DNA from: Escherichia coli
GTDB taxonomy: Bacteria > Pseudomonadota > Gammaproteobacteria > Enterobacterales > Enterobacteriaceae
DNA length: 64,000 nucleotides
Strand: one strand, 5' to 3'
Assembly: GCF_013315695.1 (NCBI RefSeq)
Contig: NZ_CP054355.1
The translations under genes were made by a program, and so were the position numbers. Every line of letters begins with the position of its first letter. Positions within the stretch are counted from its first letter, which is position 1. The notes beneath the pieces are model-generated. The model worked only from the letters and a program-made list of their open reading frames with translations. It was not told the origin of the DNA and searched no databases. Of this stretch, positions 29,438-58,390 are shown in pieces.

Positions 29438-29459
29438 TTATCACCTCGTCATTACTACG

Positions 29460-33911: not shown

Positions 33912-33942
33912 CCTGCCTCCTCTCTGATGGAGGCTTTTTTTT
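33912..33942 (+). terminator. Rho-independent terminator (plus strand) abutting the finO 3' end
   Basis: gcctcctctctgatggaggc hairpin followed by T8. Confidence 0.55.
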
Positions 33943-34501: not shown

Positions 34502-34603
34502 GATTGCCCTGACCTTTGTGAAAATATGTCCTCCAGGTCGTTGAAACTACTCACTATGATATTAAGCTGACCTCAACGACCTCTGACATATTAATACCGA
34601 CAA

Positions 34604-35464: not shown

Positions 35465-35522
35465 AAATATCCTGTGTTATGTTGTTTATTAATAATCAGA
35501 ATCAGCGTCAGTATCATACCAG

Positions 35523-36269: not shown

Positions 36270-36288
36270 CAGTGTTTGTCTTCCTGTA

Positions 36289-39200
36289 TCAGTCTCCGCC
36301 CAGGGTTTTCTCTTTCTGCAGGTCACGAACCATATCCCGCTCCATCTGCTGCAGACGCTCCTGCAGCAGATTTTCCCGGGCAACCTCCCGGACCGCTTCC
36401 CGCTCCCGTTGTGATTCACGCAGCACACTCTCCGGCAGTGCGGTTTCCCGTTCAGATATGGCAGACCGGTCACGCTCCTGTCCGGCAATATCCCTGACAG
36501 CCAGCTCTGTTTTGCCATCCGGCAGGTCAGGTTTGTTCTCTGCCATTTTCCTGACAATTTCATCTGCGCGGCGTTCCGTTTCACGGCGGATGGCCTCTTC
36601 AGCCTGCCGCTGTGCCAGTACCTCTGCCGTGACCGGTTCGCCATTTCCGGCCCCCGGCTGGACGCTGTTATCCGGGATATCCCCCCACACGCGGCCACCG
36701 GTGATGGCACCGGGATTCCACGGACGACCTTCACCGGCAATTCTCACCACCACACCGCTGTCAGGATTATCACGGGCAATCCGGACGCCATCCTGCATAT
36801 TATCAGCCAGCAGGCTCTCTCCGTTACGGCTGCCCTGCAGGGCCACGAACTGCGCATCCCCGCTGCCTTTCACCCGTCCTTCACCACTGAATCCCCGCAG
36901 CCCGTTTCCGTCATCCGTGGTCAGTGGGTTCAGCCAGATACCAGCTGACTTGCCGTTACGGTCAAACGCCGGCAGTGCCACATACGGCTGCGGATATTTA
37001 CGTCCCGGTGCAATAAACCGTGCAGGGCTGTCTCCCCCGGCCAGCCCTGCCTGACGGAGAACGGCACGGCCTGCCGCCACGTCCCGCAGTTCCCGTGCCG
37101 TACTGAACAGCCGCTGCGCATTCATGACCTCCCGGTCCGGTTTCGGCTCCAGCACATCGTGGGCAGTTCCTTTCTGTACGGCATTGTTAATGGCATCCGT
37201 CCAGCCCTGACGGTTATCGGTGTACACCTGCACATGCTGCTTCATACGCGACAGGGCCACGTAGGCTGACTCAAAGCCGGCCATCAGTTTCCGGTTACCT
37301 TCCGTGCCTTCAAGCGCGATGGCAAAGGTTTCACTCGCCCCCTGCGCACCGTGGGCGGTGATGGCATAAGCCAGGTCAATATGTTGCTCTGCCCGCTCCT
37401 GGCCGGGGCGAATCACCCGGGTCTGCTGTCCGTCTGACAGCGTGACACTGTCACCGGAAACCGCTGTCACCGTCCAGACGCTGTTGGCCACATAACCGCG
37501 CTCCCGGTCACTCTTCGTGAAGCGCATCCGGTCGCCGGTCCCCACCCGGATTTTGTCCGGGGTGTACAGTGTGACACCTTCAGCCACCGCCTCCCGGGGC
37601 GAAATCAGCCGCGTGTTACCTTCCGCATCCTCCAGGGTTATCAGCCCGTCATCCTTGCTGATACCGGCAATCCGGTGATACACACTATCCACCAGGGCAA
37701 GGGCATCCGGGTTATTCTCCCAGGTGGAGAGACGACGCAGCTCCCCGTCACGTATATTCGCTGTGTTCAGGACAGGCACCATGACCTGCTCTTTCCCCAG
37801 CTCACCGGCCTTTTCCCGTGCATCATGAATCATGCTGTTCAGTACGCGCCGGTCCTCATTCAGGTGCGTGACAATCAGCGTCTGCTCCCGTGCTTCCGGT
37901 GTCCTGCCGGTATAGTCGCGGACAATGGCTTCATACAGTGTCATGGGGACATCCGGAAAAGTCTCACCTTTCAGCATCGCCTTCTGCTGCGCTTCTGCCA
38001 GTTTCGCTTCCTGGCTGTGACTGAACTCCGTCACGGAGTGCTCCGGTGCCCATGCGCCCTCCTGACGGGGAACCTGAGACGGTTTCACACTCTCAAGCCC
38101 GGACAGTGCCCTTTCCACATCCCGGTTAATCAGGCTGTATACCGCCTCCCGCAGTTCCGGCGTCTGACGCACAATCTCCTTCATGATGACCACATCGGCA
38201 GCACTGCGCGTCTGCTGGAGACGGAAAGGCTGACCGGGCGCGATGGCCTGCAGCTGGTCCGTGTCACCACTGGCCACGGCACGACCGCCACCGGCCGCAA
38301 TCAGGGCGTATGCCCGTGCCATGTCGGTATTGCCCACCATTGAGCTCTCATCGAGCAGGAACAGCGTGTTGCTGAAATCCGGCGTTTCTCCGCTGCGCTG
38401 CTGCAGCTGCGTGTCATGCAGAAAGGACGCCAGCGTCTGTGCATCCACGCCGGCGCTGCGCATCTCACCGACCGCACGGTGCGTGGGCCCCAGCCCCACA
38501 ACTCGGGGACGCTCACTCGCCGGCAGCATGTTCACGGCTGACATCACCGCCCGGAACTGTGTGGTCTTACCCACACCGGCATAACCCTGTACCACCGTGA
38601 AACGGTCGGACGTTTCCAGTATCATACGGGTGGCGGCACGCTGTCCCGACGTTAACGTCTCCATGAGTTCGCCGGGTACTCTCTCCATCAGCGGCGTGAC
38701 CGCCTCCTTACCTTCGAGAATATGGCGAAGAATACTTTTTTCTGCCTCATACGACGCACGGGAAACCAGCAGGCCTGTGCCATAGCCTTTTGCCACATCC
38801 ACATACAGTAAGTCACCGCGTTTTATCTGCGCATTGATTTCCCCTCCCAGTTCAGTAAAACCGGTTCCTTCTGCAGCAAACGACTTCGCCTCTGTCAGCA
38901 GGTCCACCATGCTGAAGGCCAGGTTTTTACTTTCCAGCACAGGAAGGGCCAGATGAATGGCCTGCTGTGCCGGCGTGTGCAGCCCGGTTTTCTGCAGACT
39001 GATAGCGGTTTCCAGCGATGTCTCACCGGCCCGCGCCTTTATCTGCTCAGAAACCACCGTAAAGGAGGGATGGCGGGCAAGTTTTTCCGCAGTACGGGTT
39101 TCATCCAGTGAGGAATACAGCCGGACATCACGACCGCTGCGGGCCAGACCGTTCAGGGTGGCGTTGTCCATTGCCATCTGTGTGACGGAGGCAAACACCG

Positions 39201-41559: not shown

Positions 41560-43784
41560 CAGAAATCATCTCCCGGCTCAACATCCTCCCCACGCTCCCG
41601 GTGCACATTAATGTTCACCTCTTCACGACGCTGCATCTGCTGCTGGATGTCCGGATGATTTTCCTGTTGCCATGCCTCATAAGCGGCCATATCCACCACT
41701 TCACCGGATTCACTGATCCCGGGTGGCAGTTGCTGTTCCATCTCTTCTTCCGGTTTCATTTTCAGCTCCTGCTCGATCCCCCCTGCCGGAACACTCACAC
41801 CTGCATCTGACTTCTTATCATTGATGACAGAAGACACTGGCTGTTGTGGCTGTTGTGGCTGTTGTGGCTGTTGTGGCTGTTGTGGCTGTTGTGGCTGTTG
41901 TGGCTGTTGTGGCTGTTGTGGCTGTTGTGGCTGTTCAGCCTGAGTCACATCTTCTCCGGAGGCAACCTCCGGTTCAAAGAGGCTGGCCATCTGACGACCT
42001 TCTGCTTCCCTTGCGGCAAGTACGGCACTCAGACGGTTCTCCATTTCCGGGTTGATGTCACGCGGAATAAACTCCGGAGCGACCTTCGGTCGTGCCTGAT
42101 ATTTCAGAGAGAGTTTGACTGCCGGATACGGTCCGGGCAGAGTGACATAGCAGGTCAGATCCGGCAGAGACTGAATGTCGGAATAACTGACCAGCGTCTG
42201 ACGCTCCATATCCTTACCGGTCGATACCCCGTCACGTACCGGGTCAGCACCGTAGGAATACTGCTCGCTGGCTTTCAGGTGCTCTTTCTCACCAATCTCA
42301 CCGGCAGCGAACTCTGCAATCTTATGGCTCGGGGAACGGAAAAAAGCACGGGTGTTCATGACGTCAAACAGCGTGGCCGCCGCTTTCTCACCGTAGATAT
42401 CTTCCAGCTGGGCATAGGACTGGATACCAAACACATAACAGCCACCGAACTTACGGGCTTCCGGCAGGATCTCCACCAGGTCCGGCAGTTTGTGTAACGT
42501 GGGTAACTCGTCACAGAAAAACCACACACGACGGTTACGGTTTTCTCCCATTGCCAGCAGACCACGAATGGCAATGGACAGCCACATGGAGATCACCGGC
42601 TTCAGGGAGGCATGGGTGTCGGCGTTCGACGAAATAAACAGCCAGCCGTTTTTCTGATCTTCCCGGACACCACGCATCCAGTCACGGATGGTAAAAGACT
42701 CACCGTTATGCTCAATCCCCTGCAGGTAACGGATGGCTTTCACGTAGTTGGTCAGCACAGCACGGATGGAAATCGCCGTTTTCTCAATTTTCTCTTCCAC
42801 CAGGTTGGCTGCCGGTGAATTACGCAGGAAGGTACGCAGTTTTTCAATTTTGATGGAAAGCAGTGTGTCCACCAGTTTGCTGTAGCTGCGGTTGGGGTCA
42901 TTACGCATCAGGTACGCCGCTTCCGCAAAAATGGTACGTCCTGAACCCTGCCAGAACGGGTCCTCTTTTGTACCCATAGGGATCAGAGTATTTGCGGTAT
43001 TATCAAAATCCGGCTGTGTCAGGCACTCCTTCCACAAATCCCATGCGGCACAGCGGGCATCCAGCGGATTCAGGATTTTATCGATGGAGGGATCATAGTA
43101 ACTTTTAACAAATTCCCCTGAACGGTCATAAATCACCACCATATCACCGCGCTGACGGGCATAGTTGGCCAGACGACGGATAACCTCCGACTTACCGGCC
43201 CCGACCGTGCCGTGCAGACAGAAGTTCTGGATTTCGGAATCCCGGATAATCGGCAGGTCGCCAATCCGGATATCGGAGTCCTTGCCGTCTTTTTTCAGCA
43301 TCCGGGCCACTTCTTTCGGGTTATCCGTCAGCTGACGCCCGCCGGTCACCTCATTTTCACTCTGCTGTTTCCCCTGATGCCCCAGAATCCAGGAGACAAC
43401 AAAGAAGGTGATCAGGCAAATAACCAGGGCCACGACAGACGCCAGAACGAATGCAGACCATAGCTGCTCTCCGCACCAGATCATATATTTATCATGCAGT
43501 ACCTGGGCAGCGTTCATCCGGAAGGTTTTGCCGTAATACTGGATCTCATAGACCGGCTGGGATTTTATTAAATCCCGCATGCCTTCCAGTGACGTACACC
43601 ACCAGTAAATACAGCCGTTGATAAACGTCTGCCAGCTTATTTTTACCCATAAGACCAGACCAATGAGGATCCAGAAAAAAATAAACAGGCAGTAAAGCAT
43701 GATATTGGCGATCTGGCTGAACATGCGGATACGCATGGACGCAATCTGACCGCCCTGGGTCATATCCTTTGCGTTAAAACTCAT
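41559..43784 (-). CDS. traD: type IV coupling protein TraD
   Basis: 741 aa, N-terminal TMs, Walker [10 protein letters not shown]-terminal (QQP)10 repeat. Confidence 0.9.
41841..41930. repeat. perfect 9-bp tandem repeat x10 (ctgttgtgg) encoding the (QQP)n tract of TraD
   Basis: Counted directly in sequence. Confidence 0.9.
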
Positions 43785-43834
43785 GATGAAACTCCGGGAA
43801 AATCTGGAACAGGGCAGAAAAGGATGATGTGGGG

Positions 43835-44572
43835 TTAATTCACAGAAACAGACCAGGTGTACCCTGTATGCCGGTGGTGATGCCCGCCTGCAGTCCTGCC
43901 GGAAGAGACCTTCTCTGTAACAATGTCAGTCAGGCGCAATACTTCAGACCAGTCACTCCCATGCGGAAACTGGATCTGAATAAAAAGGCGTACCCGTTCA
44001 CGGTGATCCAGAACTGTGTCCGGTTCATAAAAACGGCCACTGTCAGGAGAAACACAGGACGTTTTATTGATGAGATCATACTTATCGGCAGGAGACTGCG
44101 ATGAAATCGCCCAGGTGATATTCTCCGCCTGGTGGCCATCAATACGACTGCTCCCCGGCGTCCATGCAATTTCCTGCGCACTCGCCACGATGATCTCCCT
44201 GGAAACTTCAGCCAGCTTTCTGGGTGTACAGAATACCGGTGCCAGCACACACAGGGACAACAAATTACAGCTGACCGCCTCCGGTTTAAGCAAATTGCTC
44301 CCGGATTTTTCAGGAAAAGATATTTTTGTCAGTATTTCAGTTAATTCCTTATGCCTGAGAGAATTAATAAAGTACATGATAAGCATCATGAGAAACAATA
44401 TAACAATAAGCCCTCCGATAACCACTAAAAGGTCAGTATCAATATTATTGCTGTACAGATAGTCTTTAGTGGTCACTGTATTATCCTGTATCACCGGGGG
44501 GTATTCAGTTACAGGCTTCTCAGTAAATTGATTATTCTCACCAACATATTCAGCGATATTGTCTGATGTCAT
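43835..44572 (-). CDS. hypothetical single-pass membrane protein inserted between traT and traD
   Basis: ATG at 44572 preceded by GGAGAAAG; one TM helix ([22 protein letters not shown]); no recognisable domain. Confidence 0.5.
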
Positions 44573-44644
44573 AATGACTTTCTCCGGAAGATCCCGGCTT
44601 CGCCGGCAACACTTCACGGTCGCACAAAGAATTTGCACAACCGC

Positions 44645-44745
44645 TCAGTGTTTTCATATTTATTTCGGAAACGCCGGGAGGTGACAAAATTTATTTTGTT
44701 ACATCCCGGGGTTGGACAACGAGCAACGCGAGGCGTCAGCAAGGA
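44645..44745. repeat. ~80-bp repeated element, copy 2 (between traT and the extra gene)
   Basis: Conserved flanks shared with 31935-32015, different internal hairpin. Confidence 0.55.
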
Positions 44746-44774
44746 GGCCGGTCAGATCAGCCTCCTGACGAGGT

Positions 44775-45506
44775 TCAGAGAATATTTGCGATTGATTTGG
44801 CCAGTTGGTCTTCGAGAACAGGCTTCGCCTCTTCAAATTTCAGGTTAACCTTGTTCGCATTTGAAACCACACGGGTCTGGTATTTATGCTGGTTACCTGT
44901 TTCAGTACTGGTCTGAATTTTCGCACCTGATGTGCCCTGACGCAGGGCGGCAACATTATCCGTTGTCACCGTTGCCTTAGTACGCTCTGCAATCTGTACA
45001 TCCGTGATCATGGTATAGTTCACATCTTCCACCATCGCATCTGCAGCCATACCCACCAGACCAGCAGCAAGGCCTACACCGAGTGTGGCACCGGCAGAAT
45101 TTGAGTTATAGCCGGTAATACCGGCACCTAACGCTGCACCAACAGCTGCGCCTTCATAACCACGGTTCAGCCATCCCTGAGACTCCCGCAGATCCATCTT
45201 ATCAGCCTTCAGCACATTCGCCTGAATCCAGTAGTAGGCTTTATCCGGAGAAGTCACCACCTGATATCCTTTTGCTTTCACAGCATCAGCAATTTTGCCC
45301 TGCAGCCCACTCATGTCTTTATCAGACGTGTTTTTGATCTGCAGAAATACCGTGCGTTCGCTGGCGGGTTCAAGCCAGATGGTCTCACTCATCTGAGTCT
45401 TCACCTCAAGGTTACGCTTCTTGATTGCTGTGCTCATCGCACCACACCCTGAAAGGGCCAGAGTGGAACTGACCAGTGCAACCATCATCAATTTTTTTGT
45501 TTTCAT
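44775..45506 (-). CDS. traT: surface exclusion lipoprotein TraT
   Basis: 243 aa, lipobox LSGC, matches F TraT. Confidence 0.9.
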
Positions 45507-45519
45507 CCAAAATATCCTT

Positions 45520-46029
45520 TTAACTAACAGACTCTTTTTTGAATAGTCCTATTACTGAGGCTATAGCTGAGAGATTATAACGATTTATATCTATGGTATA
45601 CACCAAGAAAAATAATATGAATGTAATCATTAGTGCAAAAACATATAAGATAGAATGCATAAACGAAACCATAGAAAAAACAATCAAAAACAACAAAATA
45701 TATGTCTTACTCTTAGAATACATAAAATTTATTATTTTTGAATCCTTTCTGAAACTATCAGGAATCGCAAGGTATAACATCATTCCATTTGTAATAGCCA
45801 CAAAAAGCAGGAACCCCATCATTCCACTAGCACATATATCAAAGCCAACATCCCTGACATCACTTTTAACCGATACTAAACGCAGAAAAGTTGGCCATAA
45901 TAAAACCCATAAAAACACATAAGTTCCCGGCTTTATGACTTGTAATAATGATGGGATATTAACACCCTCTACAGAGAGTACCTCCTTTAGTTTCTGCATC
46001 TCCATTTTTATATCATAGTGAGTGATCAT
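45520..46029 (-). CDS. traS: entry exclusion protein TraS
   Basis: AT-rich hydrophobic 169-aa ORF between traG and traT. Confidence 0.65.
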
Positions 46030-48851
46030 AATGGCCCCTTCAATCGTTCTTTCTTATCATCCACCATCTGTTTTAACGCATCTTCAGACGGTGTTGGCAT
46101 TAATTTCTGTCGTTTATTTTCTTCATTATATCTGTTGTTTTGCTGAATTTCTTCCTGTTTGTGATTATTTTTTAACTCTGAATATTGTCTGTCTACAATA
46201 TTTTCTTCGCCATGAATACTATTCTGAGTATCTCCGATATTCCCTTTATATTCTGTGACCATATTATCAACCTGATGTTTTACATCATTACGGATATTAC
46301 TGTCCTGCGTTCTTTGATCAATAATGACCTGATGCCCCTGATGGTCAGCAATAATATCCTGGCTGCCACCACCCGAAGGTACGCTCTCCATTCCTTTACC
46401 AATATCCCCACGGGATTCACGCCAGGCATTATCAACACCAGGCTGTACCTGTTCCTGCACAAAAGACCACGCCATAGCCCGACGGCGTTCTGCAATCTCC
46501 GGCGAACTGGTATTTGTCAGAATAGCTTCTGCATCCTGCGGTGCGCGTTTCATCACATACTGTGCAAACTGTTGCGACAAGTCTTCACTCATCTGCCCGC
46601 TCATGCTTTCAGTACGGGAGGCCATTTCCGCATATTCATGGCTGCGGGTCATATTCGTCGTGTACTGGTCGTAACTCTGTTTTGCTGAGTTCAGGGCTGC
46701 AGACAACTGGTCCACGCGGGAATCGGCATTATTGTCAGTATGGCTGCCGGATTCACTGACTTTGCGACTGGTAAAGTAATCGCTGGCCTCTTTAAAGTCC
46801 TTACTGGCTTTAGCATCGATATCATGGCGAGCATCATGGGTAGCCCTGCTGCCACTACTTGCTGAATGTGAGTCATCATCCGTTGCATCCAGGCTCCCCT
46901 TAAATCCACCTCTGATGCCTACCCCACCACCAACACCAAGAATTTTAGGTTTAACCCCCCATTCAGCATGAGCATCAGCATACATTCCACCAGATAGCCT
47001 GGTACTTGTTGATGCCAGTTCCTGAGTCGCCTGCTCATTACTGATATTATGCGCCTTCGCATAGCTTTCCACTGCACTGCGCATACGGCTGGCCATCATG
47101 GAGTCCTGTGCGCTCATCGTGCTGTCAGCACCACCTGTGACAGAATCACTGCTCCCCCGGTTAGAACCAAACTGGCTGAGCGAGTTCCAGGCACTGGCAA
47201 TACTGCTGCTGAACCCATGCAGGGCGCTTTCTGCTCTGTTCGACGCCTCCCGGGCCATTTCCTGTTGTGCCGCTGCAATCTGACGCGTTGCATTGATACC
47301 AACCGGTAACCGGGACATCGCCCCGCTCGCATCCATCACCATATTACCGTCACGGGTCTGTGTGGCAGTTGCGCCACTGCCGGTCTGGTACATCATCTGA
47401 CCAAACGACGTGGTGCTGTTGGTGCTCCAGCTGAAGCCGTTCACGTTTTCCGTCTGCATGTTGCCGTAGGAGTAATTACCGTCAACCACACTACCTGCCG
47501 CACTGGCAGTCGGGCTGATAGCAGAGGAAGCGAAATGGCTGTACACGCTGGAAAAACCTGCGCCAAGGCCTTTTACCATCATCCATGACAACGGGGGTAT
47601 CATGACAGATATATATCCGGCAGTGGACGCCAGGTCGGAGTATTTCAGCTGTATCTGAGAGAGTTCAGAGAGCACGACCGGTGCACCATTCTGCTTTGCA
47701 TAGAATGTCATGGCACTGTTCAGAATGGCATACAGCAACGGCCAGGTCTGGAACCACATCAGAGCAAACACATAGCCTCTCAGAACAGACAGCGTCAGTC
47801 TGTTGAAGACAGCCGCCAGTACCAGGAGCGGGAAGATACCAATGGTAATGCCCACCAGAATGGTCTGCACCATCGGCAGGTTTCGCATCAGCACATGACC
47901 AATGGAGACATGTGCCAGACGCTGTTTCTCCATTGACGAAGTCGTGGCCAGACTGACCAGGCTGGCGGTATCACCGTTACGGGCTGCATTACTGGTGATA
48001 CCCTCTTTCAGGGCATTCATGGTGACGTTCTGGCGCATAATATGACTGGCAGACTGGCTGGAGCCGTAGAAATAACTGTAACTGTCACTCACCAGTTGCC
48101 TGAATAACAGGTCCGGGTCCGGTCTGCCGCCAAATATCTGCTGCACATAATAATGCCAGGTCTTGCCTCCCGTCTTTGTATCGAGATTCAGCCTGTCTTT
48201 CAGCGTGACCGACGCATCTTTACAGGTTATGAAATTATTATTGCTGTCATAAACGCCCCGTAGCGGGCTGGGCCGGGAAAAAATCAGCGTGTAGGGGTCA
48301 CCGGAGGCCATCAGGTCTTCCAGCGTGTATTTGTGGTTCAGGTAAATATCCCCCAGCACGCAGTTCTGGACGTAGTCCTGAAACAGATTGATGATTTCCG
48401 GATTCCGGGACAGAAAATCGGTGCTTTTCACAATCAGGTTCGCCCCGAACAGCATGCCTGTCTTGCTGTAGGTGGCGCTGTCAGGCTGGGTGAATATCAT
48501 CTCGTAACTGGCCACCATTGCATGCCCGATACGGGTCGTCAGTGAAAGTGGCATCGCCAGTCCGACCGGCACATTATCCACCCGGTGAACTTTGACCAGG
48601 TCACTGTTATCAATAATCTGCACCGATGTACGGACATTAACCAGCAGGCTGATAAGCACAAACACGGCCACCCAGCCCAGCAAATCCATCACGTTGTGCC
48701 GCTGTACCCACATCACGGCCACCGCGAGAACAGACAATGTGAGCGCAATTTTTTCGATGGAATCCCACGTCCGGGTCCCCATAAAGGCGGCAATGGCGTT
48801 CAGGTTATTGCTTAACCACTCACCACCGGCAATCACATAGACTTCATTCAC
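46026..48851 (-). CDS. traG: mating-pair stabilisation protein TraG
   Basis: 941 aa, polytopic N-terminus, position. Confidence 0.85.
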   Translation of the reverse strand: MNEVYVIAGGEWLSNNLNAIAAFMGTRTWDSIEKIALTLSVLAVAVMWVQRHNVMDLLGWVAVFVLISLLVNVRTSVQIIDNSDLVKVHRVDNVPVGLAMPLSLTTRIGHAMVASYEMIFTQPDSATYSKTGMLFGANLIVKSTDFLSRNPEIINLFQDYVQNCVLGDIYLNHKYTLEDLMASGDPYTLIFSRPSPLRGVYDSNNNFITCKDASVTLKDRLNLDTKTGGKTWHYYVQQIFGGRPDPDLLFRQLVSDSYSYFYGSSQSASHIMRQNVTMNALKEGITSNAARNGDTASLVSLATTSSMEKQRLAHVSIGHVLMRNLPMVQTILVGITIGIFPLLVLAAVFNRLTLSVLRGYVFALMWFQTWPLLYAILNSAMTFYAKQNGAPVVLSELSQIQLKYSDLASTAGYISVMIPPLSWMMVKGLGAGFSSVYSHFASSAISPTASAAGSVVDGNYSYGNMQTENVNGFSWSTNSTTSFGQMMYQTGSGATATQTRDGNMVMDASGAMSRLPVGINATRQIAAAQQEMAREASNRAESALHGFSSSIASAWNSLSQFGSNRGSSDSVTGGADSTMSAQDSMMASRMRSAVESYAKAHNISNEQATQELASTSTRLSGGMYADAHAEWGVKPKILGVGGGVGIRGGFKGSLDATDDDSHSASSGSRATHDARHDIDAKASKDFKEASDYFTSRKVSESGSHTDNNADSRVDQLSAALNSAKQSYDQYTTNMTRSHEYAEMASRTESMSGQMSEDLSQQFAQYVMKRAPQDAEAILTNTSSPEIAERRRAMAWSFVQEQVQPGVDNAWRESRGDIGKGMESVPSGGGSQDIIADHQGHQVIIDQRTQDSNIRNDVKHQVDNMVTEYKGNIGDTQNSIHGEENIVDRQYSELKNNHKQEEIQQNNRYNEENKRQKLMPTPSEDALKQMVDDKKERLKGPL

Positions 48852-50230
48852 AGCGTGCTCCCTCCGAAGTGATAGTTGTTCTGGTAACGGCTGAGCATGC
48901 GGGCGGAAAGCTGCTGGCGCATGTAGCTCATCTGACGGTCAACAACCAGCAATGCATCCTGCTGGACCTTTACCTGCCCCTGGAAAACCGCAATCTGTTG
49001 CTGTGCCTGATTCAGATTCTCCAGCACACTGTCCAGCACGGTCTGTGGATAGTTCCCGGTGGCAATCATGGCCCGGGCCTGCTGAAGCAGTTCCTGAATG
49101 TACTGGAGCATGATGTCGTAGCCGATATAGTCCGTCAGCTGGTAAACCACGCTGCTGGACACACCGAGCATCTGCGGGTCAATAAGATATTTAAAGACGG
49201 GGACGGTGGTGCTGGAAATGAAGCCTTTTTCCCTGTCATCCAGTGGAGTATCACTCACCGCTTTATTCTGAATACTGGTGAGCAGTTTTGTAATCTGTGA
49301 TTTCAGGGCTTTATCCCGGGCGATGGTCACATTTGCATCCGCCACCACCTTCAGACACTTGTCCGAATCGTTGCAGTGATAAACTTTTGCCGTTCCCCCC
49401 TCCATAATCGCCCGGAGGATATCGCGGTCAGTGGTACGCGCCGGCAGGGGGGTAATCTCGCTGTCTTCCCCAAAAATCAGCGTACCGGTGAGCGTCATAA
49501 TAAATTCTTTCAGTTCTTTGTTACCATCAAGCATCCTGTTTTTGGACAGCGAGTCCCAGATGATATTGATGTTCTTCAGCACCCGTTCCTTATCTTTGTC
49601 ACTGGCCTTGTCACGAACAGACGATGACTGTCCTCCGACCGTGCAGCCCTGACGGGACGCGGCCCAGTCAGCAAAAATATTGCTCTCACCGGCAATGTCC
49701 TGACAGACCTTCTGCTGTGACACCTGAGTCTGAGGAAATAATCCTCCGACAATCCCCTGCGCCACCTGACAGGAGCTGAGGTTCATACTGTTAATGTCGC
49801 TTGCCATTTTCTGCAGGAAGTCTTTTGCGGTTTTGATTTCCGGCACCGTTGCCTGCAGGGCAAGGTCAAAAAAGTAACCGGCAGCGTTGCTCATAATCTG
49901 CTTAACAAAACGCTGCAACTGATCGCCATTAATAAAACTGAACGAGCCGAGATAGGCGTCGATGCCGCCACATCCGGCATTGATATCCGGCAGCGTCATG
50001 GAAATCAGCTGGATATTTTTGACCTGGGTGCGGGCATACAGGGAGCCACCATAGGCATACCCGGCGGCCTGCCCCTGCCAGACGCCCGGTTGTGTGGTAT
50101 TGGAAGCAAATCCCAGCTTATTAAAGAACTGATTCATGTCGCTGTTCACATCCGCTGACGCTGCGGGTGTGACCGTCAGTAAAGCGGCACAAAGAACCAG
50201 AAGAGGTTTAATGCGAAGCATTATTGCCAC
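48848..50230 (-). CDS. traH: pilus assembly protein TraH
   Basis: 460 aa with signal peptide, position. Confidence 0.85.
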   Translation of the reverse strand: MAIMLRIKPLLVLCAALLTVTPAASADVNSDMNQFFNKLGFASNTTQPGVWQGQAAGYAYGGSLYARTQVKNIQLISMTLPDINAGCGGIDAYLGSFSFINGDQLQRFVKQIMSNAAGYFFDLALQATVPEIKTAKDFLQKMASDINSMNLSSCQVAQGIVGGLFPQTQVSQQKVCQDIAGESNIFADWAASRQGCTVGGQSSSVRDKASDKDKERVLKNINIIWDSLSKNRMLDGNKELKEFIMTLTGTLIFGEDSEITPLPARTTDRDILRAIMEGGTAKVYHCNDSDKCLKVVADANVTIARDKALKSQITKLLTSIQNKAVSDTPLDDREKGFISSTTVPVFKYLIDPQMLGVSSSVVYQLTDYIGYDIMLQYIQELLQQARAMIATGNYPQTVLDSVLENLNQAQQQIAVFQGQVKVQQDALLVVDRQMSYMRQQLSARMLSRYQNNYHFGGSTL

Positions 50231-50633
50231 CCTCCCTTAATTTGTTCTCCCGGCGCATACGGCGTTTCAGCCGGAATATTCTGATCCCCCCGTTTATTAA
50301 TTCATTTAAAGGGTTCCTGACGTATACGATAAGAAATCCACCTGCAAACGCCCATAACGTATACGGAATGACATACATCAGGATGTTCCACATATAACGA
50401 AAATTATTTAATTCCGGGTCAGCTTTCCACGAATCAATACAGGCATCAAAAATACTATGCATAATCACCCATAAAAAAGTTCCGGCAGCAACGAACACAA
50501 AAAACAGATCAAAATATATATCAGAAACCCTGCGTTCATAATCATAATCCCGTTTAGTTTTTCTGTTTTTTAGTTCCGCATCATTTCTTTTTTCTTTCAT
50601 TATAAGTTTCCTCTGATATTTCCGATGATTCAT
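50208..50633 (-). CDS. trbF: TrbF (start uncertain)
   Basis: Small membrane protein between trbJ and traH. Confidence 0.55.
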   Translation of the reverse strand: MNHRKYQRKLIMKEKRNDAELKNRKTKRDYDYERRVSDIYFDLFFVFVAAGTFLWVIMHSIFDACIDSWKADPELNNFRYMWNILMYVIPYTLWAFAGGFLIVYVRNPLNELINGGIRIFRLKRRMRRENKLREGGNNASH

Positions 50634-50961
50634 TCAGGCCGTTCATGCGGCTGTAATATATTTCAGACACCGAAATCCATCCCACAATTGCCCCCACAAA
50701 AAACACAACAGAAACAGAAAAGGTAAGACACAGCGAAACGACAATTTCCACAGGGCTGGCGGGATAAAAAAGCCCCTGACGGATAAAGGGGATATTCAGG
50801 CTGACGATTATTCCCGTCGCGATGCCGGATATTCCGGCAATGAGTAACACCACCTGCTTATTTCGTACCTTTTTCCTCTCCGTACATCTGCAGAACGGTA
50901 TCCATCCGCGCCATAAAACTGGCGGCATCCGTTGCCCCCTGCAAAAGCGGTAATGCCTCAA
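50581..50961 (-). CDS. trbJ: TrbJ (start uncertain)
   Basis: Small membrane protein between trbB and trbF. Confidence 0.5.
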   Translation of the reverse strand: MRHYRFCRGQRMPPVLWRGWIPFCRCTERKKVRNKQVVLLIAGISGIATGIIVSLNIPFIRQGLFYPASPVEIVVSLCLTFSVSVVFFVGAIVGWISVSEIYYSRMNGLNESSEISEETYNERKKK

Positions 50962-51403
50962 GTGTGTTGACGTTGACCAGGAAGGTGGTCGGTGTGGCCA
51001 CCGGGATATTCGGGAAGAAGGTCTGCATCACGTCCGGTGGCACCGGTAATGCTTCCGGAAAGGCGGTATCCCCCTGACCATCCAGGGTGTAGGGAAAAAC
51101 GGAAAAGCCGTACTGCTGTGCCAGCTGTTTCAGTACCGGGTCAAACTGGTGACAGTAAGGGCAATGCCCCTGCATAAACAGCACCACCTTCCAGTCGGCC
51201 AGGTTAACCTGCCTGCCGTTGCTGAGGCGGAACCAGCGGGGAGCCGGCTTTTCTGTTCTGGCTGATGTGTCTGCTGCCGGTTGTGCAGGCTGCACGGCCA
51301 TACCCTGCGGATTCCAGAGTCGTTCAATTTCATCCCGGGTGGAGGCCTGCACACCTGTGGCCATCATCAACAAAATGACCGGCAGTAATTTAGTGAGAGA
51401 CAT
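50858..51403 (-). CDS. trbB: periplasmic thiol:disulfide isomerase TrbB
   Basis: 181 aa, signal peptide, CPYC active site. Confidence 0.8.
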   Translation of the reverse strand: MSLTKLLPVILLMMATGVQASTRDEIERLWNPQGMAVQPAQPAADTSARTEKPAPRWFRLSNGRQVNLADWKVVLFMQGHCPYCHQFDPVLKQLAQQYGFSVFPYTLDGQGDTAFPEALPVPPDVMQTFFPNIPVATPTTFLVNVNTLEALPLLQGATDAASFMARMDTVLQMYGEEKGTK

Positions 51404-51674
51404 GTCCGCCCTCCTGCTGCCCTTCCATCATGGCCTGTTGCCTGGCTTCCAGTGCCTCACGCTCTTCCAGGCTGACACGTGCAATCCATGCATCCAGCAC
51501 CTGGTATGCGCCGAACAGCACAAGGATGGCCGCAATCAACTCCGCCAGAAAAAAAGCCATCCAGGGTTTGCTGTAAACAAGACGGGCGACGATATGAAAC
51601 CAGACACCCAGGGAAAATACCCACATTCCCGTAATATCAAGCCGTGGTAAAGAGAATCTGCGTTTACTTATCAT
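51390..51674 (-). CDS. traQ: pilin chaperone TraQ
   Basis: 94 aa membrane protein, position. Confidence 0.75.
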   Translation of the reverse strand: MISKRRFSLPRLDITGMWVFSLGVWFHIVARLVYSKPWMAFFLAELIAAILVLFGAYQVLDAWIARVSLEEREALEARQQAMMEGQQEGGHVSH

Positions 51675-51754
51675 GTTAAACTCCGGTTATTATTTACATG
51701 AGAGTATTCATGTCTGTAATATTCGCGTTTGTGTGATATTAATCAGAGGTACAA

Positions 51755-52090
51755 ATGAAAAAGTTATCTTTTAAAGAAAAACTGGAAATAGTGAGAAACA
51801 TCATAAGAGAGTCATTATCAGGTAATGCGGCTTTTGCTTTACTGGTGTATTCATTATTGCACTCCCTCCCCATTAAAACCTTTGCTGATTTATTTGTGAC
51901 GATACTGTTATTTATAGCGATTATCGCTGTTGTGATATGGCTATTTCTAATCATCTATGTTTATTTTTGTGAGTTATTCAGAAGTCACTGGATAGCAGTC
52001 TGGTTTATCCTCTGGTCTGTGGTAATCAACCTCACTATTGGATTTGGCATTTATGACAAATTAGCACCAGTCATTTCACTAATGAAATAA
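51755..52090 (+). CDS. artA: anti-tra-strand membrane protein ArtA-like
   Basis: Hydrophobic ORF on the opposite strand between traQ and trbA, as in F. Confidence 0.5.
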   Translation: MKKLSFKEKLEIVRNIIRESLSGNAAFALLVYSLLHSLPIKTFADLFVTILLFIAIIAVVIWLFLIIYVYFCELFRSHWIAVWFILWSVVINLTIGFGIYDKLAPVISLMK

Positions 52091-52412
52091 TAAAAAACCA
52101 CATCACTCCAGACCATATGGCTGACAACATAATACAAACAAACATCCTTCTGAAACTGTCAAACTTCGTGATAACTGGTATGGTACTGACTGCCATTGAA
52201 ACAACCGGTACGGCACACTGATTCATAACCGCACCACAAAGAAACAAGAAATTATCTGGCAGCATACATACACTTATGACATTTACTACAAAGAAGACAA
52301 ACGAGCTCAGCAGATAAACTCCTTTATTATTTGGTCCTGTAAAGAAATAACCAACAACCCCCACGATAAACAGGCTGGCACCTGTAAAAAAACACAAATC
52401 CCCTGTATGCAT
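52071..52412 (-). CDS. trbA: TrbA
   Basis: 113-aa membrane protein between traF and traQ. Confidence 0.65.
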   Translation of the reverse strand: MHTGDLCFFTGASLFIVGVVGYFFTGPNNKGVYLLSSFVFFVVNVISVCMLPDNFLFLCGAVMNQCAVPVVSMAVSTIPVITKFDSFRRMFVCIMLSAIWSGVMWFFIISLVK

Positions 52413-52425
52413 ATATAACCTTTGG

Positions 52426-53199
52426 TTAAAAATTCGGTTTAAAATCTTCAGAAACGTTCAGGAACTGTTTTGCCAGGTCGTCCTGTGAAATAAAGCCGTA
52501 TGATAACGGGCGAACACTGCCCTGTTTCGGGTCAACCAGCATCATGGCCGGGAAATATTTCACACCGAGGCGCTGCGCCTGCCCCTGGTCAGTCCGGGAA
52601 TCCGGCAACAGCGGATTAATCACGCCATCCACGGAAACGGGAATAACACTCAGACCATAGGTATCCCTGAAGCCATTAATGACCTGCGCCAGTTGCCCGT
52701 CGATGGGGTCCTGCCCCCGGTAAAAGAACATGATGCCGTAGTGTTCAGCCAGTTTCGCAATGGCCTGTCGCTGCTGCGCCTGGTCTGCCGCCAGCTGGTT
52801 CCGGACCGTGCCGTTGTAATGGCTGTACTGCAGGTTATAGTCCAGTTCGGGATGCGCCAGCATGGCTTTTTTGGCGCTCATGGTGAAAAGCCCGGCCTGC
52901 TGAGTCCAGTAATTCTGCAGCCGGAAATATTTCACAAAATTATCCACGCCGGGATACAGAATAGCTTCGTACAGCGCCCGCTTTGTTGCCGTCTGCAGCG
53001 CGGTCAGTTTCTGCATAATGTCCGGCTCCTGACGGGGGGCTGCAGGTACTGGTTTATTTTCTTTTTCCTTCGGATTTATTTTCTCGTTATACCACTGCCA
53101 GCCTGCATCTTTTCCTGACGCCGGAAAAATAAAGCAGCAGAGTAACAGTGGCAGTAATGCTTTATTCATCTTCATTCCTTTCATCACTTTTTCTTTCAT
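52426..53199 (-). CDS. traF: pilus assembly protein TraF (thioredoxin-like)
   Basis: Signal peptide; position and size (about 247 aa from MNKALL). Confidence 0.8.
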   Translation of the reverse strand: MKEKVMKGMKMNKALLPLLLCCFIFPASGKDAGWQWYNEKINPKEKENKPVPAAPRQEPDIMQKLTALQTATKRALYEAILYPGVDNFVKYFRLQNYWTQQAGLFTMSAKKAMLAHPELDYNLQYSHYNGTVRNQLAADQAQQRQAIAKLAEHYGIMFFYRGQDPIDGQLAQVINGFRDTYGLSVIPVSVDGVINPLLPDSRTDQGQAQRLGVKYFPAMMLVDPKQGSVRPLSYGFISQDDLAKQFLNVSEDFKPNF

Positions 53200-53422
53200 C
53201 AGGTTTCTGCAGGTCAGTCAGGGCAGAAAAACAAAAATACAGAATAAACAGAAGCACACCGGAGTAAAGGATAACGAAAGCAGCAGCAAGCATCTCACCT
53301 GCAGTGGTTTCTTTTACCGTATCCCACGACCAGATAATTACCGGGGAAATGACAAACGCTGTAATCAAAAGCCGGATAAGAAAATCAATAAAACGGTTCG
53401 ACGTGAATATGACTTTCATCAT
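53162..53422 (-). CDS. trbE: TrbE
   Basis: 86-aa membrane protein between traN and traF. Confidence 0.65.
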   Translation of the reverse strand: MMKVIFTSNRFIDFLIRLLITAFVISPVIIWSWDTVKETTAGEMLAAAFVILYSGVLLFILYFCFSALTDLQKPDERKSDERNEDE

Positions 53423-53445
53423 TTCCCCCGGTTATTTTCCATACC

Positions 53446-55296
53446 TTACTGTCCTGCCTGTTTCAGCTGGTCAGCAATCTGCTCTTTCACTTTCTGCGTC
53501 AGAACGCCACTGTCCGGGATTTTCTGGTTATTCATCAGGTCTTCGTAGAAGTTAGTGAAATCCAGTCTGTCGAACTGAATTTTCTGCAGCTCATCAACCG
53601 TAATCCCCCGACAGTCAGGATGCTTCGCACGGCCAAAACTGATACGCAGCTGACCGTTGCGCCCCTGCTGCTGGACTATCTGCGCCAGCTTCGAATCAAA
53701 CTGACAGTAGCTGCGTTTTTTCTGCAGACAGACACCCAGCACTTTCTTCGAACAGAACTCTCCGACACTGACGGTCAGTTTGTTTGATTTTGCTTTAGCC
53801 AGGGCCTTTTCATCACTGCTGCATTTGGCCAGCCCGATATCCTGTCCCCAGCCGCTGTCCTTACAGCAGTTGCTGTATCCGGCTGCAGCCTTCTTACAAA
53901 ATTTCGCCTGACCGGTGAAAGCACGGACATCCACCCCGTTCAGCGCCGCAACATCCTTACCTGCTGCGGCCAGTGCCGCCAGCTGAGAAACGGCTTCGGC
54001 AAAATCATTACTCTGCCCGCTCTGAGCCTTATCACATTCGCCATCGAGACAGAAGACGTCTCCCCCACAGACCATCACTTTCCCGGATGTTTTTGACTCG
54101 CAGGAGTACGTGGCGTACTCATGCAGACAGGTTCCCTCATCGGAATAAAACGCGCACTGACGTGAGGCCAGCGTACAGGCCGGATTATCGACATATTTCT
54201 GACAGGTGCCGTTATCTGCGGACTGAGTGACATATTTATCCCGGTATGCCCAGCATGCCTGTGTGATGTTCCAGGGTTTACCTTCCATCACTCCGGTTTT
54301 CGTACCACCCGGCTCTGAACACTCAGTGCCTGTCAGCACGCCATCCGCTTTATTAAACGGACAACTCTCCACCCACTCCACCCGGGGAACCCATTCTTTA
54401 TCACGGACCTTCATCCTGAGTTTCAGCGTAAAGGTGGAAGCACCACTGACAAGCGATTCATAGACTTTCCTGTCACCATTCCCGTGCGGGAGGCAATTAC
54501 CGTTAGCAGTACAGCCACTACCGGTCAGAACCTGCCCCTGTGTCACCTGCAAACCTGTCGCCCCGGACAGGGGGTAAGTATCCGACTGCCCGTTTGCCAG
54601 GCCGACATTAAAGGTTGTATTCATGAAGGTATAACGGGAGTTCAGGAAGAAAAAAGCGGCGTATACAGACAATGATGCACTTTCCACTGTACCGGTTACC
54701 GGAGCCGTGACACTGAACACCAGTTTCAGCCCGTTCATACTGAACCGGAACTGTGAGTGCGGTATCGTCACTTCACGATATTCATCCGTGTATTTCCAGT
54801 CCCCGGTGATACTGGCAGTCCGTGTGCAGTACTCCTCCACCATCGTGTCCCGCTCACAGGTATAGTTTGTGAACTCACTGCGGTTTATCTGCTGCGCACT
54901 GCACTGCTGCCCGGTGTTTCCCACAATGCTGTCAGCCCGGTTCACCACATCCCTGCCGGTCTGAATGAACGGTGCATCCGGTGACAGAATGTCTTTCGGC
55001 TTGTTCATGAAGGACTCTGTGATGGTTTTTCCGGTTTCACCGGTCGCCCATTCCGTGGTGCCGTCATTTTTCAGGCCGCCATCCCCGCCGGCAGTCACGC
55101 CACCGTAATATTTTGTCTCGTCCGGATTCGCGTTATAGCTGGGGATACTCTCCTGTGGCTTAAAGCCCTGAATACTGCCTGTACCCTGCCCCTGAATCTG
55201 ACGGGCAAAATCAGAACCGGCCCGGTAATCACTGTTGCTGTCAGCCTGTGCCATGCCGGCAACCAGAGCCAGTATCAGAGGTAAAATACGTTTCAT
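53446..55296 (-). CDS. traN: mating-pair stabilisation outer-membrane protein TraN
   Basis: 616 aa, Cys-rich, signal peptide. Confidence 0.85.
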   Translation of the reverse strand: MKRILPLILALVAGMAQADSNSDYRAGSDFARQIQGQGTGSIQGFKPQESIPSYNANPDETKYYGGVTAGGDGGLKNDGTTEWATGETGKTITESFMNKPKDILSPDAPFIQTGRDVVNRADSIVGNTGQQCSAQQINRSEFTNYTCERDTMVEEYCTRTASITGDWKYTDEYREVTIPHSQFRFSMNGLKLVFSVTAPVTGTVESASLSVYAAFFFLNSRYTFMNTTFNVGLANGQSDTYPLSGATGLQVTQGQVLTGSGCTANGNCLPHGNGDRKVYESLVSGASTFTLKLRMKVRDKEWVPRVEWVESCPFNKADGVLTGTECSEPGGTKTGVMEGKPWNITQACWAYRDKYVTQSADNGTCQKYVDNPACTLASRQCAFYSDEGTCLHEYATYSCESKTSGKVMVCGGDVFCLDGECDKAQSGQSNDFAEAVSQLAALAAAGKDVAALNGVDVRAFTGQAKFCKKAAAGYSNCCKDSGWGQDIGLAKCSSDEKALAKAKSNKLTVSVGEFCSKKVLGVCLQKKRSYCQFDSKLAQIVQQQGRNGQLRISFGRAKHPDCRGITVDELQKIQFDRLDFTNFYEDLMNNQKIPDSGVLTQKVKEQIADQLKQAGQ

Positions 55297-55772
55297 TTCC
55301 CGGAATCTCCTTTCCCTGCCAGTAAATCATGAGCCACCTGCCGGCAGTCACCCGTGGCGGCCACTTTCTCCAGCGCCAGGCCGACCCGCAGGTTTCCCCG
55401 GATGATGTCGTATCCCTGACTGCAGAACACCACCAGTGCCGGTACACTGCGAATGCCGTACTGTGAAAACAGCGTCGGGTCGATCTGAACACCATCAGTC
55501 GCGCCGTCTTTCACCAGGGACAGCACGGCTTCAGCGGTGGTCTTCAGGTCATTGTTCACCATGCCCCGCAGTGTGGCCGGAATACCGTAGTGCCGGGTTT
55601 CGCCCAGCATCCGTTTCAGCCCCTCTTCGGGAATGGAAAACGACACAAAATACAGGGCACCCTGCCGGGGTTTCCCGTCCTGCGAAGCCTGCTGTTTACG
55701 AACCAGCTCATCCAGAAAATGGTTATCTGAACGCTGAAGGGGGTTTTCCAGCACCTGTTTCTCCGCCCAGGC
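55293..55772 (-). pseudogene. trbC: TrbC, 5'-truncated by IS1
   Basis: Reading frame runs open into the IS1 left end at 55773. Confidence 0.65.
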
Positions 55773-55827
55773 GGTGATGCTGCCAACTTACTGATTTAGT
55801 GTATGATGGTGTTTTTGAGGTGCTCCA

Positions 55828-56103
55828 GTGGCTTCTGTTTCTATCAGCTGTCCCTCCTGTTCAGCTACTGACGGGGTGGTGCGTAACGGCAAAAGCACCG
55901 CCGGACATCAGCGCTATCTCTGCTCTCACTGCCGTAAAACATGGCAACTGCAGTTCACTTACACCGCTTCTCAACCCGGTACGCACCAGAAAATCATTGA
56001 TATGGCCATGAATGGCGTTGGATGCCGGGCAACAGCCCGCATTATGGGCGTTGGCCTCAACACGATTTTACGTCACTTAAAAAACTCAGGCCGCAGTCGG
56101 TAA
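55828..56103 (+). CDS. insA: IS1 InsA
   Basis: 91 aa, [23 protein letters not shown]... Confidence 0.9.
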
Positions 56104-56525
56104 CCTCGCGCATACAGCCGGGCAGTGACGTCATCGTCTGCGCGGAAATGGACGAACAGTGGGGCTATGTCGGGGCTAAATCGCGCCAGCGCTGGCTGTT
56201 TTACGCGTATGACAGGCTCCGGAAGACGGTTGTTGCGCACGTATTCGGTGAACGCACTATGGCGACGCTGGGGCGTCTTATGAGCCTGCTGTCACCCTTT
56301 GACGTGGTGATATGGATGACGGATGGCTGGCCGCTGTATGAATCCCGCCTGAAGGGAAAGCTGCACGTAATCAGCAAGCGATATACGCAGCGAATTGAGC
56401 GGCATAACCTGAATCTGAGGCAGCACCTGGCACGGCTGGGACGGAAGTCGCTGTCGTTCTCAAAATCGGTGGAGCTGCATGACAAAGTCATCGGGCATTA
56501 TCTGAACATAAAACACTATCAATAA
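56022..56525 (+). CDS. insB: IS1 InsB (expressed as InsAB' by frameshift)
   Basis: 167-aa ORF in the -1 frame relative to insA. Confidence 0.85.
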
Positions 56526-56540
56526 GTTGGAGTCATTACC

Positions 56541-57248
56541 AAAGTCCGGGTCATTACGACGTTTAATCAATTCATCTGCAACGAGGAAACTGGTATCACT
56601 GGATGCCATGCGCAATGCACTCATTGCAGCTTTCGTAACTGAAGACACACCAATGCCAGAATTACCATGAATGGCACTTACAGAGTCAAATTGACCAACG
56701 ATAACACCAACATCAAGCGTAGTGCCGCCAATATCAACTACCAGCGATTTTTCGAACTGACCAACTTTATCCACGACCAGACGAGAAAACACAGCTGGCA
56801 ATGATTCAGGCATCACATCAACGTGTTCAATGGTGAAAACATCGCCTTTATTAAGACGAATCGGCCTCATTAAATTCTCAATTTTACGCTGAATGTTGAG
56901 TTCATTTTTTTGACACTCTTTCGTATAGAACTCACTGATAGGCAAAGTCACAGTCAATGATACAGGCTGAGGCGCTAATCCACTATTCAGTAAAGCGTGA
57001 TGCACAGCTAACAGGTTAACATCCGTATATTGATACTCAATATGAGTCGTAAGAATAGATTGGTTGCTAACTTCATCATACGTGTATTTTTTACCATCCA
57101 GTTCATAGTTAAATGTCTGGCGAATTCCTAACCCGTCAACCTTCCATCCATGACGAAATGAGTTTTGCGACAACGACTTACAGATTTTCCCATTATCATT
57201 CCATGCCAACTTGATTGTTGTTGAACCATCATCGCAGTATACGTTCAT
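56541..57248 (-). pseudogene. parM: actin-like segregation ATPase ParM/StbA, 3'-truncated by IS1
   Basis: N-terminal ..DDGSTTIKL.. actin-fold phosphate motif; frame reads into the IS1 right end; no parR follows. Confidence 0.65.
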
Positions 57249-57476
57249 CTATAGCCCCTTAAATACTCAATCTGAGTAAATCATTGTTTCTGGTTGCAAG
57301 GTAATACTCAATTTGAGCACCATCATAGTTATGAAATCACAAAACACAAGTATTATTTATTACATCACATGGCACACTTCACATTTCATACTTCATAAAT
57401 ATGAACACATATTGACACCTCAGGTTACCGTGTCAAAATATCATCATACTTCACACATCACATTTATGAGGTTGCA
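57249..57476. promoter_or_regulatory. parC-like centromere/promoter region shared by divergent par genes
   Basis: Direct repeats (atactcaatYtgag x2; acttcaca-type repeats) between the divergent parM and parA starts. Confidence 0.5.
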
Positions 57477-58121
57477 ATGATTACTGTAGTTGGTGGGAAC
57501 AAAGGTGGTTCAGGGAAAACTACCATTGCATCAAACCTGGCTATTGCTCTCGCAAATAAAGGAAGGGAAGTCTGCCTGTTAAACGGAGATCTACAACGAA
57601 CAGCCGCAAAACATCATGCGGAACGAGAAGCTGCAGGACTGTTACCAGCAATAACCCTTGTTGAGAAATTTGATAACCTGACACAAACACTACAGGCTCT
57701 GAATGAAAAGTTCGATGATGTAATAGTGGATGTCGCAGGAAGAAACTCAAAGGAATTCATAACGAGTGGAGTTGTCGCACATCAAATAATTGCGCCACTA
57801 CAGTGTTCTCAACCAGATCTGGATACTCTTACAGAACTAGAACAACAGATAGACGCAATGCGTAACCTTAACCCGGAACTTAAGGTTTATTGTTTACAAA
57901 GTATGGCAACAACCAATCCGGTTTTGAGGGGAAATGAGAGAAAAGAATTCCTTGAATATCTTGAAGAATTCCCAACAATTCAAGTCCTTGATTCAGTTAT
58001 TTGTTTCAGAAAAGTCTATCGCGATTGCATGAGCAACGGCACCGGTGTAGTAGAAACGAACAATACAGCAGCCAAAGCAGAAATTGAACATTTAATGAAT
58101 GAGGTATTTGGCCCATGGTGA
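57477..58121 (+). CDS. parA: ParA-family partition ATPase (small type Ib, pB171 par2-like)
   Basis: Deviant Walker A GGNKGGSGKTT; 214 aa. Confidence 0.75.
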   Translation: MITVVGGNKGGSGKTTIASNLAIALANKGREVCLLNGDLQRTAAKHHAEREAAGLLPAITLVEKFDNLTQTLQALNEKFDDVIVDVAGRNSKEFITSGVVAHQIIAPLQCSQPDLDTLTELEQQIDAMRNLNPELKVYCLQSMATTNPVLRGNERKEFLEYLEEFPTIQVLDSVICFRKVYRDCMSNGTGVVETNNTAAKAEIEHLMNEVFGPW

Positions 58122-58390
58122 AGAAACCCAGCCAGCAAGCATTAAACAGAGCTGCAGTTACGGTAGAACAAGCAGAGGCTCTGGCTCAGCGCCTTGCGGA
58201 TAAACCATACGGCGCGCCGGAAAAACCCGAACCAGAAAAACAATGTCGGACGACAATCTCTCTTGGTGAAAGCATGCTTGTCACAATAGAAGATCTGGCA
58301 TTGAGGAATAAACGCAATGGTAAAGATCCAAAAAATGTAAGTGCCATCGTCAGAGTAGCCCTTGAGCAATACTTAAAAACACTAACGTAA
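58115..58390 (+). CDS. parB: small centromere-binding partner (ParB/ParG-like)
   Basis: 91-aa ORF overlapping the parA stop (ATGGTGA). Confidence 0.55.
   Translation: MVKKPSQQALNRAAVTVEQAEALAQRLADKPYGAPEKPEPEKQCRTTISLGESMLVTIEDLALRNKRNGKDPKNVSAIVRVALEQYLKTLT

Follow-up and report, generated by a model that had tools for sequence, protein, structure and literature searches.

Where an F-like transfer region ends abruptly at an insertion sequence (IS), with a cut partition gene on its far side, the question is by what event the two were brought together and what was lost between them. Such a junction is found in a 64,000-bp stretch of Escherichia coli DNA (contig NZ_CP054355.1 of assembly GCF_013315695.1; "the window" throughout), in which a copy of IS1 stands between the 3' end of the transfer gene trbC and the 5' end of the partition gene parM. 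Our analysis points, with a probability of roughly two in three, to this IS1 being the scar of an IS1-anchored, transposase-mediated deletion in an IncFIB/FII virulence plasmid of the pUTI89/pEC14_114 type, with predicted consequences for transfer and partition.

The extent of the surviving transfer (tra) genes was determined by blastn against one complete F-like tra region. The reference aligns to positions 35600-55772 of the window and stops exactly at the IS1 boundary; the rest of trbC, the genes from traU to traM, the origin of transfer (oriT), the SLT gene and the leading region have no blastn match anywhere in the window. When 24 proximal Tra and leading-region proteins were compared with the window by tblastn, only TrbC residues 52-212 were found, and a short-word search of the window with the oriT/nic region of the reference F-like plasmid gave only chance 13-14-mers. 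Measured against a self-transmissible F-type plasmid (MOBF/MPF_F), the window has no oriT with a nic site in cis and no set of pilin and pilus-assembly genes (traA, traL, traE, traK, traB, traV, traC, traW, and traU are absent, trbC is partial); it does have the TraI relaxase, the TraD coupling protein and the distal mating-pair formation (Mpf) genes traN, traF, traH, and traG. The retained genes lie in the order traN, trbE, traF, trbA, traQ, trbB, trbJ, trbF, traH, traG, traS, traT, orf, traD, traI, traX, hydrolase, finO. From traN to traI, the 15 distal genes all have their full length and no internal stop, traX and finO are open as well, and the promoter region upstream of the block (traJ/PY) has been lost. 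A first-pass annotation, made from the sequence alone, had stated that everything from oriT to trbC is absent, that the region can specify neither a pilus nor an oriT, and that traI, traD, and traG are intact. Our searches bear it out on each count, a trbC fragment being all that blastn and tblastn recovered of the missing part.

Both genes that abut the IS1 are truncated. The trbC fragment encodes residues 54-212 of the 212 in TrbC; the first 53 codons, including the N-terminal export signal, are gone. On the other side, the parM fragment contains the full StbA_N domain, but of the 159 positions of the ParM C-terminal domain (PF21523) it covers only 3-75, so that the complete actin-like ATPase of a ParMRC system is not encoded (236 of 323 residues). 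The parM frame continues for 81 nucleotides into the IS1, to position 56460, and yields a chimeric open reading frame (ORF) of 262 amino acids. The gene for ParR, which follows parM in the plasmids p89_MLI108-3, pEC14_114, and pCE10A, was not found in the window, where IS1 occupies its place. These results agree with the earlier description of trbC as cut on one side, parM as cut on the other and parR as missing.

The IS1 itself is in good condition. It starts with GGTGATGCTGCCAACTTACTGAT, and its ends read GGTGATGCTGCC... and ...GGAGTCATTACC; the terminal inverted repeats (~23 bp, imperfect) match at 18 of 23 positions, as expected, like its length, of the IS1 family. Its two open frames, insA (55828-56103) and insB' (56022-56525), both match NCBIfam NF033558 (IS1 transposase) as well as IS1 zinc-ribbon models, and the A6C motif TTAAAAAAC, at which a -1 frameshift joins insA to insB', is present. 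There is no second copy of IS1 elsewhere in the window. IS1 makes 9-bp duplications of its target and promotes adjacent deletions. Here the 9-bp flanks, which we read exactly as the first-pass annotation did, are CGCCCAGGC and AAAGTCCGG and do not form a duplication; sought in the window as a sign of inversion or cointegration, neither 9-mer occurs again. As a positive control, the second IS1 of the closest sibling, plasmid 2 of E. coli AF3 (AF3 plasmid 2; NZ_OZ547118.1, 82.3 kb), has a perfect 9-bp duplication, CGCGCAATA. The missing duplication argues against a simple insertion and not against the identity of the element, since it is expected after rearrangement.

What was rearranged can be read from the pUTI89/pEC14_114/pRS218 family, the cjrABC-senB virulence plasmids (IncFIB/FII, ~114 kb) of extraintestinal pathogenic E. 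coli (ExPEC). The backbone of the window (cjrABC-senB, the iron-uptake cluster, ccdAB, resD, a ParA-like module, and parM) is 99.8-100% identical to that of the family, with 99.9-100% on the parM side of the joint; from traH to trbC the window is ~99.7% identical to pEC14_114, and gene order and orientation are equal on both sides. In pEC14_114 both flanks of the IS1 are collinear and in the same orientation, with breakpoints between 53893 and 53894 and between 91105 and 91106. The interval missing from the window is 37,212 bp in pEC14_114 coordinates, a figure that counts two pEC14_114 IS elements which the direct ancestor may not have had. Read from right to left with respect to the window, pEC14_114 has parM, parR, umuDC, IS elements, the leading region (a DNA methylase gene, ardA, the ssb region, a parB-like gene, psiB, and hok), the SLT gene, oriT, traM through traU, trbC, and traN, all of them oriented as the two flanks are. 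That plasmid, which retains the 37.2 kb between parM and trbC, is typed as conjugative. Because both flanks fall on one continuous stretch of pEC14_114, the IS1 marks a deletion of oriT, traM to traU, the 5' end of trbC, the 3' end of parM, and parR. The collinearity supports the first-pass annotation in its claim that the junction removed the proximal tra genes and the end of parM, but its account of the extent fell short: umuDC, the SLT gene, and the leading region (ardA, ssb, the parB-like gene, psiB, psiA, and hok) went with them.

The evidence on mechanism comes from relatives that share one side of the joint. AF3 plasmid 2 resembles the window in its backbone, its cjr-senB orientation, its IS1 (0 differences), and the IS1-parM joint, which is shared over 8,228 bp at 99.99% identity. 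It differs in having the left inverted repeat (IRL) of the IS1 flanked by the orf between traT and traD, at pEC14_114 coordinate 102618 and 11.5 kb deeper in the tra region; its deletion amounts to 48.7 kb and fully contains the 37-kb one, so that the two are nested. AF3 plasmid 2 differs, too, in a frameshifted traD and in colicin and microcin B17 modules that are not in the window. A metagenome contig (ENA ERZ28660104 scaffold_1001, positions 6709-12637) has the microcin B17 operon (mcbC to mcbG) immediately after the IS1-parM joint; its mcbC flank is 100% identical to AF3 plasmid 2 but inverted relative to it. The mcbC joint is an IS1-associated inversion derivative, the inversion outcome of intramolecular transposition. 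A single joint between parM and the right inverted repeat (IRR) is therefore found with three IRL flanks, in trbC, the traT-traD orf, and mcbC. That one end is fixed and the other varies in its partners, with a nested deletion and also an inversion among the outcomes, is the hallmark of repeated intramolecular transposition of IS1.

We infer the involvement of the transposase and the order of events from this anatomy, the collinearity, and the shared and variable joints. IS1 would have been present at, or have inserted into, parM, with its IRR end beside AAAGTCCGG. Intramolecular transposition from the IRL end ("adjacent deletion") would then have joined IRL to a target inside trbC, and ~37 kb would have been lost, comprising the 3' end of parM, parR, umuDC, the leading region, oriT, and traM through traU up to codon 53 of trbC. 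IS1 would stay intact in this process and its 9-bp duplication would disappear, and the same element would later have made the further IRL-side rearrangements seen in the sister plasmids. Deletions of this kind, promoted by IS1 next to itself, were reportedly described by Reif and Saedler in 1975 for the gal region. The classical cases share with the present one an intact IS, one fixed end, the lack of a duplication, nested growing deletions and inversion as the alternative outcome; they were observed experimentally, whereas the process here is read from comparative sequence. IS copies without a duplication have been attributed either to adjacent deletion or to recombination between IS copies, and adjacent deletions often grow stepwise (PMC11708052).

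The second of these routes is a possible, though rather unlikely, origin of the joint. IS1 would have inserted independently into trbC and into parM, in direct orientation and with a 9-bp duplication at each site; RecA-dependent recombination between the two copies would then have excised 37 kb and left a hybrid IS1. Such an exchange predicts just the anatomy observed, in which IS1 is intact, its flanks do not match and the borders are collinear, and recombination between IS copies is documented to leave IS elements without a duplication (PMC11708052). The element is also abundant in these plasmids, with a second copy in AF3 plasmid 2 and another in traH of a sibling of the present plasmid. 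The exchange needs two extra insertions, however, and more for the AF3 plasmid 2 and mcbC flanks, all of them using the same copy in parM. Moreover, no simple IS1 insertion was found at either site in PLSDB, in the complete E. coli genomes, or in the 24 longest contigs with the chimeric ParM ORF. The diagnostic joints of such insertions would be ACCTGCCGAACAAAGTCCGG next to GGTGATGCTGCCAAC in parM and GTTGGAGTCATTACC next to CGCCCAGGCTTTCAGCTGAT in trbC.

It is very improbable that the joint arose by fusion of replicons, with an FIB virulence plasmid that had no tra genes being joined by IS1 to a foreign conjugative plasmid (FII), inside the trbC of the latter. In that case the "missing" genes would never have stood beside parM and could be located elsewhere. 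The thought is prompted by the identity of the tra block to pEC14_114 and AF3 plasmid 2, which is ~96-97% over 20 kb where the FIB backbone reaches 99.9-100%, and by the FII repA region, just 94.4% identical to pEC14_114; for the 24 kb of distal tra block at 31700-55772, no PLSDB plasmid exceeds 98.4% identity. A comparison in sliding windows of 500 bp shows where the divergence lies. The 7 kb abutting the IS1 (48617-55772) is of pUTI89 type, ~99.7% identical to pEC14_114 with ~23 differences, and the divergence is packed into traG and continues beyond it, towards position 31700. We therefore rejected a foreign origin of the tra block. With the parM side 99.9-100% identical to pEC14_114 and its relatives, both sides of the joint come from one plasmid family. 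Siblings with the identical joint carry a pUTI89-type traG, the window contains neither a second IS1 nor the proximal half of trbC, and pEC14_114 has parM, leading region, oriT, and tra genes in exactly this order and orientation.

The divergent tract has a history of its own. Together, traG and traS form an entry-exclusion specificity pair, and both differ in the window from those of the same-joint siblings. Outside the window, every plasmid in which its exact TraG sequence (941 amino acids) was found has a full-length trbC. The IncFII repA/copA region (29495-31475) is 94.8% identical to AF3 plasmid 2, compared with the 94.4% for pEC14_114 given above, where the neighboring backbone exceeds 99.8%; it is a different FII allele, consistent with a recombination tract that runs from traG through the replicon. 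On these alignments the remnant has recombined with another F-like plasmid, the joint itself having formed within the pUTI89 family.

We did not find the whole joint in PLSDB or in the complete RefSeq genomes of E. coli, and only its right half is there, in AF3 plasmid 2. That the joint is unique to this plasmid was nevertheless rejected, as exact-protein look-ups show how often it occurs in other public assemblies: their index lists the chimeric ParM ORF for 154 blocks and the truncated TrbC ORF for 799 blocks. At least six independent NCBI assemblies contain the full arrangement parM'-IS1-'trbC-traN, and the contigs or records that carry it are 54-95 kb long. The assemblies are GCA_900448625.1 (a 74,762-bp contig that shares 99.91% identity with the window over 12.8 kb), GCA_000351945.1, GCA_964044285.1, GCA_964046385.1, GCA_964049465.1 (74,708 bp), and GCA_964047195.1. 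A misjoining of two IS1-bounded contig ends through the repeat, which the multicopy nature of IS1 in E. coli and the absence of the exact joint from PLSDB and the complete RefSeq genomes might suggest, has next to no probability, since these independent assemblies contain the complete arrangement and one metagenome contig also contains the left joint. The joint is thus real and, being no private event, is a widespread lineage marker. No paper describing this exact joint was found in the literature.

In several of the siblings the tra genes have decayed further. traG and traF are split, an IS3-family element interrupts traN, and traH is either split or disrupted through insertion of an ISL3-family element or a further IS1; such decay is expected of genes that no longer function.

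Several points weigh against the adjacent deletion and the consequences drawn from it. The sequence cannot by itself separate transposase-mediated adjacent deletion from RecA recombination of two IS1 copies. No intermediate, that is, IS1 in parM with AAAGTCCGG on both sides or IS1 elsewhere in the interval, was found in the collections that were searched for simple insertions. All 15 distal tra genes are intact in the window, which is slightly unexpected for a long-dead operon. Non-transfer and stable inheritance are phenotypes that we only infer. Finally, the data cover a 64-kb window of a longer replicon. With regard to this last point, the fully sequenced sibling AF3 plasmid 2 has none of the proximal tra genes anywhere, and if the window lies wholly within a replicon of ~74.7 kb, the size of the 74,762-bp contig and the 74,708-bp record with the same joint, the ~10.7 kb beyond it would be shorter than the stretch from oriT to trbC (~13.5 kb). 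The features on which the argument turns, and their neighbors, are listed in Table 1.

Table 1. Features at and around the IS1 junction (positions in the 64,000-bp window).
Feature	Position	Strand	Remarks
Surviving distal tra block	33941..55296	-	all genes full length
Different traS allele	45520-46029	-	169 amino acids; TraS of siblings, 159
Divergent patch in traG	46117..48616	-	~282 differences in 2.5 kb relative to siblings with identical joint
trbC 3' fragment	55293..55772	-	159 codons and stop; NF010290 positions 54-212
Left 9-bp flank CGCCCAGGC	55764..55772		no match to right flank
IS1 (IS1A-like), intact	55773..56540	+	768 bp; insA and insB' open
Right 9-bp flank AAAGTCCGG	56541..56549		no match to left flank
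parM 5' fragment	56541..57248	-	236 of 323 codons; ParM residues 1-236
Repeat-rich intergenic region upstream of parM	57249..57476		retained
ParA-like ATPase (214 amino acids) and ribbon-helix-helix protein (91 amino acids)	57477..58390	+	divergent from parM

The intergenic region upstream of parM, a spacer shared with the divergent ParA-like gene, contains degenerate direct and inverted repeats and probably holds a promoter and a putative centromere/operator. The ParA-like ATPase matches NF041546 with a score under its cut-off, and there are MipZ and CbiA matches too; with the ribbon-helix-helix protein it forms a candidate for a second, intact partition module of type Ib-like character, which could compensate for a dead ParMR. 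On this reading parMR is not the sole partition module, the pair surviving beside parM. The ParMR system itself would be dead, and the stability of the plasmid would then probably rest on the ParA-like/ribbon-helix-helix module, ccdAB, and resD.

Elsewhere, the window differs from pEC14_114 in a cjr-senB inversion and a Tn3-family insertion, as well as in the FII repA and traG-traS alleles. The cjrABC-senB segment is inverted (window 1-10328 and 12614-23761 are the two parts compared, with IS elements at ~9859-12900), the boundary of the inversion consists of IS3-family and IS5-family (ISKpn26-like) elements, and AF3 plasmid 2 has the orientation of the window. A truncated agp-like glucose-1-phosphatase gene (12826-13569, minus strand; profile positions 1-217 of 413) adjoins the IS5-family element and is probably a chromosomal piece carried on the plasmid. 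An IS26 remnant (24319-24688) adjoins a ~4.8-kb insert (region 24319-29494) that is absent from pEC14_114 and encodes a Tn3-family transposase (995 amino acids), a serine resolvase (220 amino acids), and a 148-residue ORF without a family match; the ORFs scanned included no obvious resistance gene. Three sibling records end at the base that corresponds to position 64000 of the window; in three others, which are longer, that position is followed directly by the start of the RepFIB rep gene. Probably, then, the window represents the final 64 kb of a plasmid record that was rotated so as to start at repB, and the remaining part would open with RepFIB.

The losses allow predictions of how the plasmid behaves. 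Having no oriT, it should not be nicked or transferred, even with a helper, and should be neither self-transmissible nor mobilisable in cis. For want of traA, traL, traE, traK, traB, traV, traC, traW, traU, and a functional trbC, no pilus would be built. With traJ and the promoter upstream of traY gone, the distal tra genes would have lost their main promoter. The plasmid should accordingly be inherited vertically. It is doubtful that the distal block is kept as something useful to an oriT-less plasmid and is not debris, an idea suggested by the intact genes from traN to traI and by the freshly recombined traG-traS allele that is found otherwise with full-length trbC. If the block were useful, it might serve in TraS/TraT exclusion and serum resistance, through TraI and TraD acting in trans, or as 20 kb of homology for recombination with incoming F plasmids and for conduction, the traG-traS patch being the scar of such an encounter.

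Comparable losses have occurred in other plasmids with related backbones, close to this parMR locus. In pCE10A (NC_017647.1) the element between traI' and an intact parR belongs to the IS3 family; in RCS93_pI (NZ_LT985309.1) one of the IS5 family separates the traD-proximal orf from the leading region, and in p89_MLI108-3 (NZ_CP117004.1) IS1SD stands between traJ' and 'umuC. These are independent losses of tra and/or leading-region genes with an IS at each joint, and they differ from the window in the IS and the endpoints. Plasmids with senB and without tra, thought to derive from pUTI89, have been published for sequence type 1193 (ST1193; PMC9769970). The deletion described here is thus an ordinary IS-mediated loss of tra genes, a known type of event in a known plasmid family for which tra loss was already reported. 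Its practical value is modest, and no open question becomes testable through it. Both joints are exact and easily searched, which makes them usable as lineage markers. The locus is a caution for automated mobility typing, in that a MOBF relaxase and a coupling protein are kept here, and typing based on the relaxase overcalls such plasmids. RCS93_pI, for example, is typed as "conjugative" in PLSDB/MOB-suite although it has neither the genes from oriT up to traT nor any pilus/Mpf gene, an overcall that is explained by the retained relaxase. For the family as a whole, the joint delineates a sublineage of the pUTI89-type ExPEC virulence plasmids that is widespread and is predicted to be locked into vertical inheritance.

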